Shown here: piece by piece, positions 5,813-63,779 of the stretch
Layout: the number at the start of each line of letters is the position of its first letter
How positions within the stretch are numbered: position 1 is the stretch's first letter
DNA from: Callorhinchus milii
Lineage: Eukaryota
Assembly: GCF_018977255.1 (NCBI RefSeq)
Contig: NW_024704742.1
Location: 129,086,001 to 129,150,000 of the forward strand
Reading direction: 5' to 3'
Length of the DNA: 64,000 nucleotides
The notes under the pieces: model-generated
Told to the model about the DNA's origin: nothing
The model's database searches: none
The model's input: only the letters and a program-made list of their open reading frames with translations
Translations under genes and position numbers: made by a program

Positions 5813-6130
5813 GTGGAGTCCTGTAGCTCAGTGGTTAGGGCACTTGTCTCACAAGCGGGAGGCTCAAGTTCAATTCCCAGCAGGGCAAAAGCTTGGGCAA
5901 GTTTCCTTACTCCACACGACTGATAATAATCCCTCGAGAAAAATAAACAATAATAAATTGGTCACTTCAATCCATGACTGTTTGTGGTACACTGCTGTGC
6001 GCAACTGGCTGCCGCGGTTGGCCCACAAATATGCAGTTAATTCACTTTACAGTATATTCTGTGAAGCACTTTGAGATGTCTCGAAAACATGAAAAGTGCT
6101 AAATCAAATGCGAGGATTATTATTATTATT
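5813..6130 (+). mobile_element. SINE family A, short subfamily, full length
   Basis: gtggagtcctgtagctcagtggttag (A box), gttcaattccc (B box), ttgggcaagtttccttactccacacg, (ATT)n tail. Confidence 0.9.
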
Positions 6131-9025: not shown

Positions 9026-10542
9026 TAGAAATTAAAACTGGGAGAGATACACTGAGAATTTATTTTGGAATAGAATTCATAACATGGACATGGTGACTGA
9101 AGGATTAGCTTGTAATCGTGGAGCAGAAAGAATGAGGACAAGCAGTGAATTGGAGTCAGAGGAGTACAAAGTGTAGGCTGTGATGTAGGACTGGAAACGA
9201 TTGCGTAAATAAGGTGGAGAAAAATCTGGTTCTCCTTTAGTCCTAGTTTCCATCTTAGTTTGCTCAACTTGATGGAATATGCCAGCTCTTCTCTGGACTT
9301 TGATGCTTCCTGAACTTGATAATAATATAATAATCCTTGCATTTGGTATAATGGGTTATCATGTATTCGGGACATCTCAAAGCACTTCACAAAATATACT
9401 GTAAAGTGAATTGACTGTATTTTTTTGAGGGTAAAAATATAAAAAATATAAAAAAATATTTAAAAGAATGGATTGGTTGAAGAAGGTCCTTCAGCCCATT
9501 TGATCTCATATTTCCAGAATCCCATCTTCACGTTGTAGTATCAAGCTGTTGCTTTTGACCTTTATCTCCTACACCACAACACTTACCCTAACAAGCCCAC
9601 ACTAACTCTCTTATCACCTACATAATCCAACAGGATCAACCAAACTACACTTGTCACCAATACCCGGTGCCCTTGCATTTGCCTTTCTTAAGCAAGGTGT
9701 GGGGTATATTTACCATCTCTCTATGTACAACTAAGTAACCTTACCCCTGCATCACTCCTGATAGAATGGTATCTCAGGATTAAGCTGCTTTGCCCTTTGC
9801 ATTGGGGAAAGTAAATACTCTGTGAGTCCTTGGCTGGTTCAAATGGCTTTCATGCATATCCCAATCATGCACAGCTTCTAATTATTGTCTATTGGAGACA
9901 CAGATGATAAACCCATGGAATAATATAATCACATTCATCAGCCCCTCCCTACAAGCCAGCAGATCATATGTTGGATCTTGCAGCAGGATTACCTTCATAA
10001 ACTAGACTTAAACCACTTCAAATAGATTTATACAAAGTTTTGGTTATGGGCTTCCCTCCATATGTCAACCAGTCGTATTCCCACTAAATCAATGCAGAGC
10101 TTTTAACACCTCTGGATAAGTGCTCTCTCCCAAGGATTTAATCAACAAATATGCAAATCTAAAAATATACCAATAACATTCTTCAATGGTTAGGTTATAT
10201 AAAATAGTGAAGAAACATGCTCCTTAACTTATTATCTCCATTGAAATTGTTATGGCAAATGTTCACTCCTGAATCAATGACCCAATAAATTACTGTGAGC
10301 ACCACTCAATAAATAGCTTCAGGACTGTACTCAATACATTGCCTTGAGAGGTACTTCACAACTTGTTTCATCTTCATAAATTACCCCATATCTTGCACTA
10401 AACTAATTACAAATCACCCAAGCAGTTATGTCATAGCTGTCTTTGCCAACAAATGTTCTTTCAACAAATTATTGTCATGAGCTTCACTCAAGGAAAAAGT
10501 CTCTGGATAAATAAACCAGTGAACCAGGCTCAATAAATTATG

Positions 10543-10796
10543 AAATAAAAATAGAAGTCGTTGGGAATACGCAGCTGGTCAGGCAGAATCTATAGAGAGA
10601 GGAAAATTAGTTAACATTTCAGGTCAATAACCTTCCATCAGAACTCAGAACTCATCAGGGTTTCTGATGAAAGGTTATTGACCTGAAAAGTTAACTAATT
10701 TTCCTCTCTCCGTAGATGCTACCTGACCTGTTGCATGTTCACAGCGACTTCTGTTTTTATTTCAGATTTTTAGCACCTACAGTATTTTGCCTTTTG
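10543..10796. mobile_element. Fold-back (inverted-repeat) element, probably Penelope-like pseudo-LTR-derived, with 13-bp TSD
   Basis: Arms ~10541-10643 and ~10662-10764 are reverse complements; tcaataaattatg duplicated at 10530-10542 and 10797-10809; hammerhead-like cores in both arms. Confidence 0.8.
10660..10696 (+). ncRNA. Degenerate minimal type I hammerhead ribozyme motif
   Basis: CTGATGA (10664-10670), stem II aggt-tattg-acct, GAAA (10685-10688), a-GTT, aact; mirror copy on the minus strand at 10609-10645. Confidence 0.55.
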
Positions 10797-10867
10797 TCAA
10801 TAAATTATGCATGAGTTCCCATCAGGCTGCTTCTTATTCTTTCCATCATGTTAGATATTACTATACG

Positions 10868-11922
10868 CATTAAGCAGCATGGTGGGAAGCTAGTGGAAAC
10901 TGGACAGAACTGGTGAGATGTGGGTACGGAGTTTGGTCCAGGTCAGTATGCAGGCAGCAGAGTTTTGAATGAGCTGGATTTTTTGAATTGTGGAGATGGG
11001 GAGATCGGCAAGGAATGCATATGAGTAATCCAGGCAGGAGGTGACAAAGACACACACGAGGGTTTCGGCTGCATTTAGTGTCAGGTACAGTTGAAGGTGG
11101 ACAACGTGGCGGAGGTGGAGGAAGGCAGTCCTGGTCAGTGACTGGATGTGGGGGAGGAAGGATAGCTGAGGGTCAAACCAGGTGCCTAGGTTGCGCACTG
11201 GTTCGGTGAGTCTGAGGGAGACCCTAGACAGGTTGAGGAGTTTAAATCTGCAGGAGTGAAGAAATTAATGGGAGCCAAGGAGTATGGCTTCCGTCTTGTC
11301 CACATTCAGCTGCAGGAAGTTTACACTCATCCAGGTCCCGATGTCTGCCAGACAAGCTGATAGAACATCGGTGGACCTGGAGTTGGTACTGGAGGAGACA
11401 AAGTAGATTGTGTTTCATCCGCATACATGTGGAAATTTACCCAGTGTCTGCGAATGACATTGCCCAGAGGGTGCACATGGATAAAGAAAAAAAGAGGGCC
11501 AAGGATGGAACCCTGGGGTACCCCGCTAATGTCTGGGCAGGGGCGGGAGGAACCATTTGCCGAGATGAAATGGAGATGGTTGGTTAAGTAGTACTCGAAC
11601 CATGAAAGTCACTAAGGTGAATGAGGGAGAAGAGGCGGTGGAGGAGGATGACATGGTCGACTCTGTTGAACACGGAAGAGAGAACGAGAAGGACGAGGAG
11701 GCAGAGGGAACCCCAGTCATAGAGAGAATGTTGTTTGTGACTTTGACGTGCGCTGTCTCTGTGTTGTGTGCAGGGTGAAAACCAGACTGCAGGGATTCGA
11801 GGAGGGAATGGAAGGAGAGGTGTGACTGAAGTTGACCTGCAACAATACGTTCAAGGACTTTGGCAAGGAAGGTAGGTTGGAGATGGGATGGTAGTATGAG
11901 AGATTGGAGGGATCAAAGGTGA
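10868..11922 (-). mobile_element. Older L2 LINE fragment spanning the RT domain (frameshifted)
   Basis: Minus strand encodes FHMYADET, GVPQGSILGP and RNLGTWFDPQLSFLPHIQSLTRTAFLHLRH...IQNSAACILT. Confidence 0.9.
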
Positions 11923-12049
11923 TGTCTCAAAGCGCTTCACAGAATATACTGTAAAGTGAATTGATTGTATATTTTGGATTTAAGCGCACTGAGATGCTAT
12001 CCTGCATGTAAGGCGCTATATAAGTGCAAGTTGTTGTTGTATTTTGTTG

Positions 12050-12330
12050 GTGAAATCATCATTAAGAGAAGCAAGACAAGAGGACATAGGCTTCAGGCTT
12101 GTGAAGGAAAAATGCTTGGACACACAGCAGGAAGTATTTCTTTGCACAGAGGGCATTCAACAGCTGTAATGGGTTGATAATCAGCAGGAAGAGTGATTGA
12201 AGCTAGGGCACTGGACTCATTTAAGAAATAACTTGATGCTGTAGTGGAAAGACAATAGGTTGATATTCTGGAAGGATGAAATCAAATGGGCTGAAAGACT
12301 TTCTTCATCTGAACTTCTTTTGTGATCTTC
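12050..12330 (+). mobile_element. CR1-clade LINE 3' fragment
   Basis: TRGHRL motif (acaagaggacataggctt), ggactcatttaagaaataacttgatg, gggctgaaagactttcttcatc tail. Confidence 0.7.
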
Positions 12331-20692: not shown

Positions 20693-21025
20693 AATAATAA
20701 TAATAATAATAATAATAATCCTTGCATTTGATATAGCGCTTTTCACGTCGGGAGGACGTCCCAAAGCGCTTCACAGAACACACTGTAAAGTGAATTGACT
20801 GTATATTTGTGGGCGAATGTGGCAGCCAATTGCGCACAGCAATGTCCCACAAACAGTCGTAGATTGAAAATGACCAATTTAATTATTGTTTTTGGTTTTT
20901 TGGAGGGATTATTATTAGGCGTGTGGAGTAAGGAAACTTGCCCAAGGTTTCGCCCTGCCTGGAATTGAACTCAGGTCTCTCACTTGCAAAGCGAGTGCTC
21001 TAACCACTGAGCTACAGGACTCCAC
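20693..21025 (-). mobile_element. SINE family A, short subfamily, full length, little diverged, with LINE-identical hairpin loop
   Basis: Intact tRNA-like head with arm ctcgc-tttgcaa-gtgag (TGC, Ala-like); tail agcgctttgggacgtcctcccgacgtgaaaagcgct; long (ATT)n. Confidence 0.92.
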
Positions 21026-23126: not shown

Positions 23127-24589
23127 TAGGATGGTAGCAATGCTCTCACACATTTCATGTTGAACTGTGCTACTCAAGTGGTTTGAAGAAATTTTGGTTG
23201 CCCTCTATTCACCTAGTGATGATTAAAATCTTGGCTTGATGGATGCCTAATGAGACACTATTATTTGTGAAGCTCTTTAAGACATTTTGACATTGCTGGT
23301 GGTACTTCAAGTGCAAGTATCATTTATTTCATTTTTAGGTCAGTTGCTTGCATGGTTCAAGCAGCCATTCAATGAGGATGAATAAGAAATCATACGACTG
23401 AACATAAAGCCTTGTCATTTAAGCCAAACATAGTTTAAATTAAAAAATGCACAGAGAAATGGCATCAAGTTCAATAACTTTATTGCCCTATTTAAGAGTT
23501 TACATTCTTTGACTTCTAAAGCTTTTCAATCTGACAAACGAATATGCGGCATTTGTTTCATCATCTGAAAGTCAAAGGTTAAAATGAAATGGTGCTGAAA
23601 TGTATATGTCTATATGCAATTCTGCGTAACTCTATTAATGCTTCAAGGAAAGTGATGCCATAGAAAGGCAGCTTCTAACAGTTAGACAGCAGTTGCGAGA
23701 AAGTTAGAAACATCAGCTCGCAATATGTCTAAACACACAGGAACTAAATATAGGCAAGATTATAGCTATCTCCAGGTTTAAGAAAACTGGTGTGGATTTA
23801 TGAGGTTATGATATGTTTCGCTCCATCAGCTGTCCACTAAAATGTTCACAGCATTCCTTTCATGCTTTGACCGGCAGTTTTATCACTTTTCTCTTGAAAT
23901 CACTTCTTTCTAAAAGTTTTGCTCTGGTGATTTCATTTTGAGGTCACAACCCTCATGAATCAAATCTGTCAAAACTGCTGTTAGCTGCAAATTTTTACTA
24001 ACAATACATTTTTAGTACTTTCTTCTTTGTGTTTTGGCTTCTTCTGGCAATCATGAACAATTCTCTAAAGTAACTGGGACTGAAATGATTGCTCATTAAA
24101 AGAGTCAGCAAGGACATGATGGGCCAAATAGTTTTATTCTTGTATAAGTTGATCTTTCAACACTTAGCTGTTGGTGGGACCTGTCAAGTGCAAAATTGGC
24201 TGCAAATTTTGCATACAGGTATAGAGCCATGACACTTGACAGCAATAAACTATGAAGCACTGTGAGAAGTCTTGACTTTGTAGACTCCATATCAAATGCA
24301 AGGATTATTATTATTATAATCTAAAGCACTCCTTGTTCAGATGTTTCACTTGCTCTTATTGTGGCCCCTTTACCAGCTGCTGCATGTTCAACAGCTTATA
24401 TTTCATTTAACATTTTTTCAAATGGTGCAGTCTCTGATCTATGTTCAATACCACTGATACATCTTTCTGCTTTATTCTGAATAAATATTACGTCTATCAT
24501 TTTTAGCTCTTAAATGTAAATGAGTTGGTATTTCAACGGACACGGTGCAAAATGAGGCTTTGCTCATGTTGTTTATTGTCTTTTCTTTC

Positions 24590-27109: not shown

Positions 27110-29337
27110 CAACAACAACAACAACAACAAGATTCCATTTATAGAGCGCCTTTCACGTCAGGAGGACGTCCCAAGGCGCTGCACAGTTGGGTCATGACCC
27201 GAGCAGGGGGGAAATGGTCAGGGTGAGGGGAGGGAAGGGAGGGAGAGAGGAGGGGGGAAATGGTCAGGGTGAGGGGAGGGAAGGGAGGGAGCGAGGAGGA
27301 GGAAGAGAGTCGAGAGGGGAGCTGAAGGCACGGTCAAAGAGAAAGGTTTTGAGACCGGCCTTGAAGGAGGAAAGGGAGGAAGCAAGGCGAAGGCACTGGG
27401 GGATGGAGTTCCAGAGCCTCGGGGCTGAGAGGCTGAAGGCCCGACCACCGATAGTAGGGCGGTTGGGGCCGGGGACGTGGAGCAGACCGGAGCCAGAGGA
27501 ACGGAGGGTACGGGCAGGTAGGTAGGGGGATAGTAGGTTGGAGAGGTAGGAGGGAGCAAGGCCGTGAATGGCCTTGTAGGTGAGGATGAGGATCTTGAAA
27601 TCAATCCTCTGGGGGATGGGGAGCCAGTGGAGGCGAGCGAGGGTGGGAGTGATGTGGTCCCGAAGCCTGGTGCGGGACAGTACACGAGCTGCAGAGTTCT
27701 GAATGACCTGCAGCTTGTGGAGGGAGGTGGCGGGAAGGCCGGCGAGGAGAGAGTTCCCATAGTCCAGCCTTGAGGTGACAAAGGCGTGAACCAGGGTTTC
27801 AGCAGCGTGAGGGGTGAGGTAGTGCCGTAGTCTGGCGATATTCCGGAGGTGATGGAAGGCGGTGCCAGTTGTGGTGCGGATGTGAGGGAGAAAGGACAGC
27901 TCAGGGTCGAACAAAACGCCGAGGTTCCTGACTGGCTTTGAGAGGTGGAGAGTGCAGCCTTGGATGCTGATGGTGTCAGCGCCTGAGGTGCGGAGGCGCT
28001 GACGTGAGCCAATCAGGAGGGCCTCGGTTTTTCGCACGTTGAGCTGAAGAAAGTTGTCTCTCGTCCAGGACTCGATGTCGGACAGGCAGGCTGTCAGGAC
28101 ATCGGTGGTCGTGGAGTTGAGAGTAGAGGAGGAAAGGTAGAGTTGGGTGTCATCCGCATACATGTGGAAGTTAACCCCATGTTTGCGGATGATGTCACCG
28201 AGGGGGAGCATATAGAGGGTGAAGAGGAGGGGACCGAGGACAGAGCCCTGAGGGACACCACATGAGACAGTACGGGGGGTGGAGGAGAAGCCATTCGTTG
28301 AGACGAAGTGAAGACGGTGGGAAAGGTAAGAGCTAAACCATTCAAGGACAGTGCCTTGAAGGTTGAGGTGGGAGGACAAGCGGTGGAGTAGGATAGCGTG
28401 GTCGACCGTATCGAATGCTGCCGATAGGTCGAGGAGGACGAGGAGACAGAGGGAGCCCTGGTCACAGATGGTCAGGATATCATTGGTGACCTTGACCAGG
28501 GCAGTTTCTGTGCTATGAGCAGCACGGAAACCTGACTGAAGGGGTTCAAAAAGAGAATGGGTGGAGAGGAAAGAGCGCAGTTGGGAGGCGACAACTCTTT
28601 CCAAGACCTTGGAGAGAAAGGGGAGGTTGGAGATGGGCCGGTAGCTTGATAGCTGCGACGCATCAAGGGAGGGTTTTTTCAGGGTGGGCGTGATGATGGC
28701 AGTTTTTAATGGAATGGGGACAGAGCCAGAGGAGAGGGACAGGTTTATGATGTCAGTGATGTGTGGGGCAAGAAAATGGAGCTGGGAGATAAGGAGTGGA
28801 GTGGGGATGGGGTCAAGGGAGCAGGTGGTTGGTTTTAGGGATAGGATGAGTTCAGTGACAGAGGGTGGGGAAACGGGTACGAAGGTGTGTAGGGGAGGAT
28901 GGGTAGGAGTCGGAGTGTGGGAGGGAAGGGGTGGGTGGTGGGTGGAAGTTGGAGGGGAAGTGACCGCGGAGCGGATTCCCTTGATCTTGGATTCAAGGAA
29001 ATCCAGCATCTCCTCGCAGTGAAGGTTGGAGGAGATGACCTGCGCGGGGTGGCGGGGGGGACGGAGGAGTCGGGATGTGGTGGAAAACAGTAGCCTGGGG
29101 TTGTTCTTCGCCTCCAGGATTATCCTGGAGTAGAAGGACGACTTGGCCGAGGCTAGAGTGGAGCGGTAAATTTTGAGGAGGTCCAGCCAGATTTGTCGGT
29201 GGACCGTTAAGCCGGATTTGACAAAGGTGCGCTCAGCAGCCCGCACCTGGCATTTCAGTGAGCGGAGGTGGGTGGTGTACCAGGGGGAGGAGCGGGAGTA
29301 GGAGACAGTGCGGGAAGTGATGGGGGCAAGAGTAGTA
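27110..29337 (-). mobile_element. Young 5'-truncated L2-clade LINE, ~2.2 kb
   Basis: Uninterrupted ORF2 remnant, 3' stem-loop, (TTG)n tail; gacaa at 27105-27109 and 29338-29342. Confidence 0.96.
27264..29337 (-). CDS. L2 ORF2 remnant with intact reverse transcriptase domain; endonuclease lost by 5' truncation (the 795-aa track ORF extends into flanking DNA to 29651)
   Basis: Motifs [59 protein letters not shown] (28149-28160), [14 protein letters not shown]; no stop over ~690 codons. Confidence 0.9.
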
Positions 29338-29690
29338 GACAAATCCTTCTCCATGTCAGATGGAGGCTGGCTGATGGGGGCACGGGTTGCTGAGGTTTGA
29401 CCCGAACCTGACGAGATTATCTGTTTTGTTGCACCTGGGACATGGAACAAGATACCGACGGACAGGCTCCCAAAATGTATGTTGCGAAGGAAAGTTACAG
29501 GCCCAACACAGGCAACAGGACCGGGTTGACCACTGGTCAAGAATCCTTGACTGCGTAGAATCAAAAGAGATAAAAACAAGTTGTCATCCTGTCCTGTAGA
29601 GGAAGAATTCTGAACATGCACATTATATTGCAGCTGGTGCTTTTTGTTCAATAATGCCTCTTACTCAGGCAATGGGTCATCTTCCGGACA
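29338..29690 (+). mobile_element. Decayed RTE-clade LINE RT C-terminal region, right half
   Basis: [43 protein letters not shown] resemble the RTE pattern RIL.I.W ... WLGHV.RM...RLPK.LL.G.L...R..GR....W. Confidence 0.6.
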
Positions 29691-50700: not shown

Positions 50701-52199
50701 GCTTGGCGGTAGGGCAGGTGTCCTGGATGGATGAGCCTTCTTCATCCAGGAAAGGACAGAATGGAAGTGGAGCAGGGAAAAGAGACAGTGGAGAAGGATG
50801 GAATGGGCGACAGAATCAAAAGTGGCCTAGAAATCGAGGAGAGCAAGAAGGCAAATAGAGCCCTTGTTGTAGATGTTGGTAACTTTGACCAGGGCAGTCT
50901 CAGTGCTTGTGATTACAATTAAGTAACTGGATTTTCTATGTTACTTGCTATTTGTGTTACAATCTCTTGATTATTTGCATCATTGCTTTTCTGCCTCTAT
51001 GGCATTCTTTAACAAATTGATTTTAAAGAAAGTGCCAACACATTAAAAACAAAGACATAGCCAGATTCTGACAGCAACCAGTATTGATAAAGGGAAGAAA
51101 GTCTGGCCAGTAAAATAAGCTCTAACTCCATGCAAATAAGAATGAGAGAGATCAAATTGGGCCAAGCGTTAAGCTGGGAACAAGATGTGGACTAGGACCC
51201 GAGCTTTGAATGCATACCTTTCCTTGGCGTGTACAAGGTGACTTGAAGGTGATGCAAATCAATCCGAAGCCTTTCAATGGTGTAGCTCTATTCCATACTG
51301 TGTGATTGGAAGGTCAGCATTATATTGTAAGTATATGTCAAAGTTGGCATTCTTTGGTTGCTTTTACTTATCAAGCTAACAAGAATGATCAGCATCAAGA
51401 ACCAGGGTCACTGTCAAGGATGGAAAGGACACAATGTGAAAATTTCACAGACTCCACTGACTCCACTTAAACCAAATAGGGGGTCAAAATTATAATAATA
51501 ATAACAATAATAATCCTTTTATTTCATTTGTTTGCCCTATCACGTTATCGAGATATCTGGAAACACTTCACAGGATTGGAAAAATAATTTAATCACTCAA
51601 TCCATGACTGTTTGGGGGACACTGCTGTGTGCAATCGACTGCCTCATTTCATCCACAAATACAGTCACGCCACTTTACAATATATTCTGTAAAGTACTTT
51701 GAGATGTCTTATCAATGACTTGATAAGGCACTATATCAAATGCAAGGATTTTGCTGTGAAGTGTCGTGACTGTGTATTTGTGGGTGAACATGGCAGCCAG
51801 TTTGCACACAGCATTGTTCGACAAACAGGCATGAAGTAAATGACAAATTTTATTGACTGACTAAATTTTACAATATTCTGCAATACAATTCCTTTCATAC
51901 TTAAGGAAATCCTCCTTCCTGTGACCCCCTCCCCCTCAACTGACTTCTGAACACTAACAGCTCTCCAAGCCAGCCTCAAATCCCTGGGGGTTATCATCTT
52001 GGACTCCACCTTAGTGAGGATTATTTTTGAGTTAAAACTAATGTCAATCAGGCTCAAAGATTTCAGCAAAATCTCAATTGCAGTCTGGTAACACAGATAG
52101 AGGCCACTTCAGGTTTCTTCACAAAATAAGGGCCTAACTGGAGATTGGGATCAGCAATTATTGCCTGAATAAATTCAGGTAAGTCTTTTCAGCCAGAAT

Positions 52200-59354: not shown

Positions 59355-59714
59355 TAATTATAATAATCCTTACGTTTGATATAGTGCCTTATCATGTCAT
59401 TGAGACATCTCAAAGCACTTCACAGAATAGGTTGTAAAGCGAATTGACTGTATATTTTGTCGGCAGCCAATGGCGCAAAGCAGTGTCCCACAAACAGTCA
59501 TAGATTGAATGACCAAATTTTTTTTTTTTTAAGAGATTATTAAGCCCGGAAAGCGATCCACCAATCAACTAACAATTGGGTTCCTACTTACTGCTAGGTA
59601 AACAGATGCCTGTGGTGTAATGTAAATTGCCTAAAATTTAATCCCGCCAGGAATTGAACCTGGGTCCTCTCGCTTGCAAGGCAAGTGTTCTAATAATATG
59701 CCACAGGACTTCAC
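59355..59714 (-). mobile_element. SINE family A long, full length
   Basis: Tail, gggttcctacttactgctaggtaaacag, head ggaattgaacctggg...caggacttcac. Confidence 0.88.
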
Positions 59715-59723
59715 CTGGTGAAA

Positions 59724-60222
59724 ACAACAACAACAACAACAACAACAACAAGATTCCATTTATAAAGCGCCTTTCACGTCAGGAGGACGTCCCAAGGCGC
59801 TGCACAGTTGGGTCATGACCCGAGCAGGGGGGAAATGGTCAGGGTGAGGGGAGGGAAGGGAGGGAGCGAGGAGGGGGAAATGGTCAGGGTGAGGGGAGGG
59901 AAGGGAGGGAGCGAGGAGAGGGAAGAGAGTCGAGAGGGGAGCTGAAGGCTCGGTCAAAGAGAAAGGTTTTGAGACCGGCCTTGAAGGAGGAAAGGGAGGA
60001 AGCGGCGAAGGCACTGGGGGATGGAGTTCCAGAGCCTAGGGGCTGAGAGGCTGAAAGCCCGACCACCGATGGTAGGGCGATTGGGGCGGGGGACGTGGAG
60101 CAGACCGGAGCCAGAGGAACGGAGGGTACAGGCAGCTAGGTAGGGGGATAGTAGGTTGGAGAGGTAGGAGGGAGCAAGGCCGTGAATGGCCTTGTAGGTG
60201 AGGATGAGGATCTTGAAATCAA
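59724..60222 (-). mobile_element. Young 5'-truncated L2 (~500 bp)
   Basis: Near-identical to 27110-27604; long (CAA)n tail; tandem G-rich unit. Confidence 0.94.
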
Positions 60223-62990: not shown

Positions 62991-63779
62991 GTTAGCAATG
63001 GAATACATAAGGATTCAAAATGATATCAAACTCCAAAGTATTTAATGAGGATTTTTTAACCATTCATTCTATTTAGCCCATCGTTCAGTGCAGACTTTAC
63101 TTCTGATCTTTTAAAAAATACATGTCACATTGTTGTGGAGTTTGAGAGGTTAAGACAAAAGGCATTTCAGTAAATTTCAACCTCGGTGCTTGGGAAGGGG
63201 ACGGTGATACAAAAAATACAGATTAAAGGAATTACCGGTGGGGTACGGGTGGAAACAAAATATTCATAAAGAGGGTGGTTATAATTCAGATATCTCTAAA
63301 CAAACTCGAGCTGAAGCAAATGATTTTACCATACAATGAAACACAAATTTCCATTTATAGTTTGAAAGAGAAATAAATATTACTTGAAAAAGAAGAATAT
63401 TAAAAGGTAAGAGGAAAGAACAGTATGGTGTTAGACTAGCTATCTTGTGTGGGGAAAAACAACACAGATTTAATGAGGGAATGGTCTGTTTCTGTAGAGT
63501 AACGTTCAATGATTCTATAAGAGGAACTGGATGTTAATACACTCGTATTGATTTCCCCAAAGCCAATTAATTTAGAAATGTTTCACGAAATTGGATCATC
63601 TCAACCTAAGAGATTACCTTGCACTGGTATTTACATTTGATGTCTCTTGCTTATTGCCAGGAATTAAACTGATTAGCTGTACTGCCGAGTGGCATGCAAA
63701 TGAGACTAATCAAATATCTTTCATGCCAAAGAAGCAGAAAGATCTAGGACAAAACACAAAATATTGCAGGTTAAATAAT

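Follow-up and report, generated by a model that had tools for sequence, protein, structure and literature searches.

Introduction

Minimal hammerhead ribozymes (min-HHRs) are type I hammerheads which have a CUGANGA box, one unpaired base before helix II and a GAAA-C-G-U-H segment, and which have no loop III (PMC4209133). According to the available text of Cervera and De la Pena (2014, PMC4209133), solo copies are widespread, and opposite-strand pairs are found 100-700 bp apart. The min-HHRs are reported to be inactive as monomers and weak as dimers (PMC4209133), or otherwise to be active only with the protein of the element (10.1101/2021.04.23.441226, PMC3846280, PMC2377424 and PMC11167929; hereafter the PLE papers, cited from their available parts).

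Penelope-like elements (PLEs) of the EN+ type leave insertions that are often 5′-truncated, with an adjacent inverted copy, a tail of 30-40 bp at one end and a target-site duplication (TSD) of variable length, and a 34-bp repeat has been described in them (PLE papers). Head-to-head copies with junction palindromes, a 31-bp tail and TSDs of 8-10 bp were described by Arkhipova et al. (2013, PMC3846280). The PLE protein of the anole cleaves both strands at an AT-rich ATT site, and both are extended (PLE papers). In the same PLE, two internal starts of reverse transcription (RT) bound the tail, and unprocessed RNA is the main template (PLE papers including PMC11167929). Another related group is that of the non-LTR retrozymes, which have been reported in the one chondrichthyan sampled (Li et al. 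2026, 10.64898/2026.07.22.740005, available text).

Comparison of the locus with described elements

In this study, I analysed a fold-back insertion with two opposed hammerhead motifs in a 64-kb stretch of DNA, the whole of which is called the window. Like the min-HHRs of metazoan PLEs, its motifs have the type I layout, a short helix I and an opposite-strand pair of copies. They differ from the description in PMC4209133 by an A-U instead of a G-C pair at 10.1-11.1, by a helix II of 4-5 bp and by the damage to this copy. A helix II starting with A is also present in one coelacanth row of the published alignment, and the searchable supplement contains no name of a cartilaginous fish (PMC4209133).

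The likeness to EN+ PLEs (Penelope/Poseidon and Neptune; Craig 2021, Arkhipova 2013, Schostak 2008, Frangieh 2024, available parts) covers the head-to-head, 5′-truncated inverted copy, the junction palindrome, the one-sided tail of 30-40 nt, the AT-rich TSD and the position of the hammerhead ~100-130 nt from the 3′ end. In contrast to those elements it has no ORF at all, and it is set among them without a clade. The anole ORF starts at helix II, whereas here the only open frame begins 23 nt downstream of the cut site and is preceded by an acceptor-like signal. With the retrozymes of Li et al. (2026), as their available text describes them, the element shares its shortness, the absence of coding sequence, a type I hammerhead and the derivation from a PLE end. 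However, retrozymes are defined by tandem repetition, head to tail, with two or more intact hammerheads, whereas this element is head-to-head and damaged. A retrozyme was ruled out, as there is no tandem array but two opposed damaged copies and no other in the window.

The Penelope-type anatomy claimed in the first-pass annotation of this DNA holds: the inverted copy, the one-sided tail and the AT-rich target with its TSD match the PLE descriptions. In the literature, such a structure is by default a 5′-truncated PLE by-product. The locus is very probably a known kind of genomic debris, a truncated PLE fold-back with a decayed minimal hammerhead.

Anatomy of the insertion

The following features were assigned, from left to right.

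10530-10542, + strand: left copy of the TSD, 13 bp, 11 of 13 A/T, includes ATT, 100% identical to 10797-10809
10543-10645, − strand: left arm, an inverted, tail-less copy of the element end
10609-10645, − strand: left-arm minimal hammerhead, with an intact 4-bp helix I, A9 changed to G, and U at 15.2 (CpG decay)
10639-10670, no strand: inversion junction, with a tandem 7-mer plus a palindrome of 7 bp whose loop is 5 nt
10660-10696, + strand: right-arm minimal hammerhead, with CUGAUGA, an extra A, a helix II of 4 bp plus U.G, and GAAA
10662-10796, + strand: amplified unit of ~135 nt in sense orientation, made up of the pseudo-LTR end and the tail
10689-10718, + strand: candidate splice-acceptor-like signal, with a branch-point-like motif (10689-10695) and a pyrimidine run (10699-10711)
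10763-10796, + strand: one-sided tail, 34 nt; the family 3′ end lies at 10795-10797
10797-10809, + strand: right copy of the TSD, repeat match to 10530-10542

The annotation had claimed a perfect 13-bp TSD, inverted arms of ~100 bp around a spacer of ~18 bp, and a short unpaired 3′ extension, and all of these were recovered. The two TSD copies are identical at 13/13 positions, and the chance of such a pair is ~4e-5 to 1e-4 for a search area of 30x60. The TSD of this single copy is thus 13 bp long, at an AT-rich site. The arms (10543-10643 and 10662-10762) are complementary at 88/101 positions with 18 nt between them, and the 13 mismatches comprise 9 transitions and 4 transversions. A perfect TSD next to arms that have diverged by 13% has a probability of ~0.17 and is unremarkable. 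The extension (10763-10796) exists on the right arm only; it counts 34 nt, or 32 nt if the arm is taken to include the 2-nt TG/CA match to the end of the TSD.

It was found that the spacer is not neutral. Positions 10639-10652 are a tandem 7-mer, and 10652-10658 is perfectly complementary to 10664-10670 across a loop of 5 nt. The junction is built of re-copied pieces from the 5′ end of the hammerhead. The whole insert folds arm-on-arm at -145.5 kcal/mol. At two mirrored places (10697/10608 and 10734/10571) both arms share letters that are not those of the family majority, which fits one template or one subfamily.

In each of three samples, one contig covers 10300-10617, a stretch that takes in the flank and the greater part of the left arm; the differences number 0, 1 and 0. 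The part of the left arm from 10543 to 10617 is unchanged in these contigs. Since the arms differ at 13 places and contigs read from the flank into the left arm, an assembly fold-back is not the source of the inverted arm. The whole element is spanned by no contig among those listed from four runs, and 10820-10880 has no cover, so that the contigs give no independent confirmation of the right junction. No empty site was seen among the contigs of the four runs, an absence that carries no weight.

The window is repeat-rich vertebrate DNA with ~40% self-matches, and the element is the sole copy of its family in these 64 kb by both blastn and a relaxed motif descriptor. Weak matches at 63748-63771 (E 0.17) and 24377-24417 (E 2.1) were not accepted as copies. 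Other repeats were noted around it. A decayed LINE fragment occupies 10885-11920, starting 75 nt to the right of the element, and a 43-nt inverted pair (9478-9520 and 12265-12307, 88% complementary, 2.7 kb apart) flanks the element and is probably two pieces of another repeat. The stretch 51603-51833 is self-complementary (71% over 244 nt), apparently from two opposed SINE-type pieces. Eight tRNA-like Rfam matches at the gathering score (e.g. 20950-21021, 5817-5888 and 59639-59710) are the heads of a ~330-nt repeat that occurs many times in the window; they are probably tRNA-derived SINEs, not tRNA genes. On the − strand, an uninterrupted frame of 797 aa at 27264-29660 encodes an RVT_1 domain (E 1.4e-36). 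Near-identical copies of the 3′ part of this frame occur in the window (97% over 499 nt at 59727-60222), which suggests a young LINE family. I take this RT frame (27264-29657) to be L2-like from its resemblance.

State of the two hammerheads

The annotation had read in each arm a minimal Penelope-type hammerhead of type I. Both motif readings were exact, and the family core agrees with the published layout of the min-HHR consensus. The family layout has a helix I of 4 bp, the box CUGAUGA, one unpaired A, a helix II of 4-5 bp, GAAA, and the C-G and U-U positions. At this locus, the CUGANGA box with one unpaired base is present in the right arm (10664-10671), and the left arm has A9>G. In both arms, a helix II of 4 bp plus a U.G pair is followed by GAAA. 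The pair at 10.1-11.1 is A-U in both arms; the usual G-C, which is highly conserved but not universal, is absent. Helix I has 4 bp in the left arm, where 3-5 bp is the criterion of the class, and is broken at the junction in the right arm. The claimed AGUU/AACU stem I is thus seen in the left arm, and the consensus of loose contig ends before 10662 ends in AG in 4/4 runs. The broken stem of the right arm is probably an effect of the junction rather than decay. A palindromic 15.2/16.2 without loop III and an NUH site are found in the family; the arms here have lost the palindrome, with A in one and U in the other. In the right arm, 15.2 (10689) is A instead of the family C and the site is GUU, so that cleavage would be expected after 10692.

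A strict descriptor of the motif, which was written after the motif had been seen, gave 1 match in the window (10664, + strand) and 0 in a set of 100 Markov sequences (order 1, 64 kb each). A relaxed descriptor gave 1 match (10641, − strand) and 1 in total across 10 order-2 Markov sequences. The Rfam hammerhead models did not retrieve the annotated motifs, either at E<=10 in 9500-12000 or at the gathering score in the window. Damaged, loopless hammerheads may fall outside these models.

The annotation had also called this copy probably inactive, and the sequence agrees: each arm has a core defect, and the arms pair together instead of forming a tandem dimer. A dimer in cis takes two sense copies, whereas any transcript of this locus would have one sense motif and its complement. 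Since opposed hammerheads cannot form such a dimer, the copy is very probably silent and was probably so already at birth.

A large family with a fixed 3′ end

Contigs of four sequencing runs were aligned to 10300-10880 at 80% likeness. Three runs (X2-X4) are whole-genome-like and all come from one study; the fourth (X7) is only guessed to be RNA. The numbers of aligned contigs were 2,619, 2,576 and 2,905 in X2-X4 and 733 in the fourth run, nearly all of them on the element. The left flank is covered by one contig per run in X2-X4, against thousands on the element. It is a reasonable inference that there are thousands of related copies, the depth itself not being a copy number.

The C of ACGU, which neither arm retains and which the annotation had inferred, was confirmed by the family. 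Position 10689 reads C in 81%, 83% and 81% of the depth in X2-X4 and in 67% in the fourth run, and the family core is CUGAUGA-A-helix II-GAAACGUU. The neighbouring 10690 reads A instead of G in 15-19% of the depth, the partner change of CpG decay. At the mirrored place of the left arm (10616, which is T here), C reaches only 12-16%, and C pooled over both arms reaches 50-52% in X2-X4. The pooled share is low because contig placement is biased, contigs sorting to the arm that they resemble. These letter shares are as expected for a decaying CpG in GAAACGUU. Close to alignment ends (within ~30 nt) the letter table seems to register nothing, and A9 and the tail are therefore unscored.

The family 3′ end is fixed, tail included. 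Behind 10795-10797 there are 197, 204 and 230 loose ends in X2-X4, whose agreement (0.37-0.41) is like that of flanks. A smaller pile of contigs (63, 63, 70 and 16 in the four runs) begins at 10662, and the letters upstream of it are mixed like genomic flanks (agreement 0.39-0.43) except for a terminal CAG. The depth is polar: the hammerhead core lies 35-40 times below 10740-10759, so the larger part of what aligned either stops short of the ribozyme or does not match it. Such a rise of depth towards the 3′ end would follow from 5′ truncation, from the presence of subfamilies whose helices differ, or from both. A depth step across the cut site was disregarded, since the mismatches of this copy clip alignments there.

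The annotation had regarded the whole structure as a tiny non-autonomous retroelement. As worded, this did not hold, as there is no sign of any copying of the fold-back unit. The strand-switch joints (15 listed of 36) are at scattered positions with one contig per run each, and the junction of this element is absent from the listed contigs and from those 15 joints. Thus, the fold-back looks like a one-off, and what has been amplified is the sense arm of ~135 nt.

A scan for the family in contig collections gave 0 viral and 0 genome matches, and 0 and 1 in metagenomes. The one metagenome match lies in a long coding frame that is unrelated, and it was dropped as due to chance. No published description of the family was found, including none that joins Callorhinchus and a hammerhead ribozyme, in a literature search that left Repbase, Dfam and subscription journals outside.

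An acceptor-like signal and a short open frame

In rotifer PLEs, the pseudo-LTR plus tail includes the first 12-22 codons of the ORF (PMC3846280, available text). In Drosophila Penelope, the intron of the pseudo-LTR ends at helix I (PMC4209133 and the PLE papers, available parts). In the right arm of this element, the candidate acceptor has 13 pyrimidines, a YAG at 10713-10715 and an ATG at 10716-10718, from which a frame is open to the end of the element. The hammerhead cut site (GUU) and helix I overlap the branch-point-like motif. By thresholds that were set after the signal had been seen, the window has 32 such acceptors, two of which are these arms; 12 have a branch-like motif, and one, this one, precedes an ATG. 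An open frame of 27 codons has a chance of ~34%, and 10714 reads G in 16% of the depth, which counts against an acceptor.

Neither a spliced read nor a protein (by queries with the 32-residue frame) was found to support the acceptor. A search of 1.84 billion proteins with the 32-residue frame gave 0 matches at E<=0.001, and a link to an RT plus GIY-YIG ORF was not obtained; the frame matched no Pfam family, and its Atlas match reached 0.77 only. In the window, Pfam gave no match in 174 of the 183 repeat-free frames, and the other 9 overlap the RT frame, which was scanned whole. In two bins (10600-10639 and 10680-10719) the ratio of X7 to X2 depth is 0.28-0.35, and in the remaining nine it is 0.50-0.75. 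As it is also 0.56-0.57 upstream, at 10640-10679, there is no clean step, and the ratio was not used as evidence of splicing.

A second acceptor-like signal, a pyrimidine-rich run with CAG at 10748-10765 (+ strand), lies at the start of the tail and is below the filter. In the sense arm, 10713-10721 can pair with 10771-10779, and the majority letters keep the complementarity, making it a candidate RT-binding stem. This helix is unsupported, since the fold of the sense arm alone is no better than those of shuffles (z -0.73).

It may be speculated that in the parent the 3′ end of a spliceosomal intron contains the hammerhead, whose cut site and helix I would overlap a branch point 21 nt before the AG/ATG of the ORF, and that the ~135-nt unit, with its preferred 5′ end, is perhaps a discrete SINE-like partner amplified to thousands. 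I consider this improbable. If it were true, splicing and ribozyme folding would be mutually exclusive and would decide between an mRNA and an intron-retaining template for transposition, which would give a handle on why PLEs keep introns. A report of an overlap of hammerhead and branch point was not found among the papers listed by a literature search.

Proposed origin

It is highly likely that the locus is an old insertion, dead on arrival, which consists of the terminal ~135 nt of an EN+ PLE (minimal hammerhead plus tail) and an inverted tail-less copy, made by an RT/GIY-YIG protein. The TSD is observed; the PLE protein would have nicked the AT-rich site with a stagger of 13 nt. Reverse transcription would have begun at a fixed point of the RNA, the tail end at 10796, as the fixed end of the family is observed; the step of internal initiation is borrowed from the anole PLE in vitro. 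Copying would have halted near the 5′ border of the hammerhead, and its template would have been an RNA uncut at GUU, since the whole motif is kept in the sequence of both arms. For the inverted arm, a second nick may have primed at the inner RT start, 34 nt upstream, or the copy may have snapped back at the junction palindrome, and both routes fit. The result would be a single integration event that left two cDNA ends, at 10796 in one arm and at the equivalent of 10762 in the other. Afterwards, the arms would have drifted 13% apart. From the literature, the parent hammerhead would be a type I with a loopless helix III that cuts only as a dimer or with the help of protein. The present copy would not cut with a defect in each core, and in a read-through RNA arm would pair on arm.

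Alternative explanations

The ~135-nt arm might instead be a discrete, SINE-like PLE that is non-autonomous, resembles a retrozyme monomer, has a 5′ end of its own and is mobilised in trans; the locus would then be a fold-back insertion of this unit. This differs from the truncated-PLE explanation only in the source RNA, and the PLE origin is shared. Contig starts cluster at 10662 and the letters upstream are mixed, so the copies seem to stop at helix I and not to enter a shared pseudo-LTR; several contigs carry exactly 10662-10797. Non-autonomous PLE derivatives have also been described (Li et al. 2026, 10.64898/2026.07.22.740005, and the PLE papers, available parts). However, a cluster at 10662 is inevitable with a query that has no family sequence further upstream, and a mixture of subfamilies would also lower the agreement. 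The depth keeps rising 3′-ward as in ordinary 5′ truncation, and the locus shows neither a tandem array nor a tRNA- or pol III-type head. I regard the SINE-like unit as possible but doubtful.

A MITE of a DNA transposon, with an incidental likeness to a hammerhead, would account for the shortness, the inverted arms, the TSD and the high copy number. In such an element the arms should abut the TSD, but here a 34-nt tail separates the right arm from it. The polar depth of the family, its fixed single 3′ end and its single-arm pieces also argue against a MITE, as do the stuttered arm junction without an internal region and the family majority that restores the ribozyme core. The TSDs made by transposases are usually of fixed length and shorter than 13 bp, and the length of the TSD was counted against a MITE, which is very unlikely here. 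Exaptation as a miRNA or siRNA precursor, or as an active ribozyme or splice acceptor on a host transcript, is suggested by the stable 100-bp hairpin, by sub-threshold matches to miRNA models and by the acceptor-like signal. Among the 9 Rfam matches at E<=10 in 9500-12000, 7 are miRNA models, but all 7 lie 26-79 bits below the gathering score (the best at 45.8 against 72) and are driven by the hairpin. Both ribozyme cores are damaged, the arm differences are scattered like neutral drift, and Pfam found no host exon in the window. There is hardly any likelihood of an exapted hairpin, and the truncated PLE insertion is the explanation that I retain.

Significance of the family

The single locus is neutral debris of a known class and has little significance alone. 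The family, on the other hand, provides a large natural collection of PLE ends from a genome like that of a cartilaginous fish. It could be used to test the anole-derived model of two RT start sites, and to test whether hammerhead-cut RNA ever serves as the template; both arms of this copy say that it was uncut. If the overlap of the cut site with a branch point is real in the parent element, the question of intron retention in PLEs would become testable.
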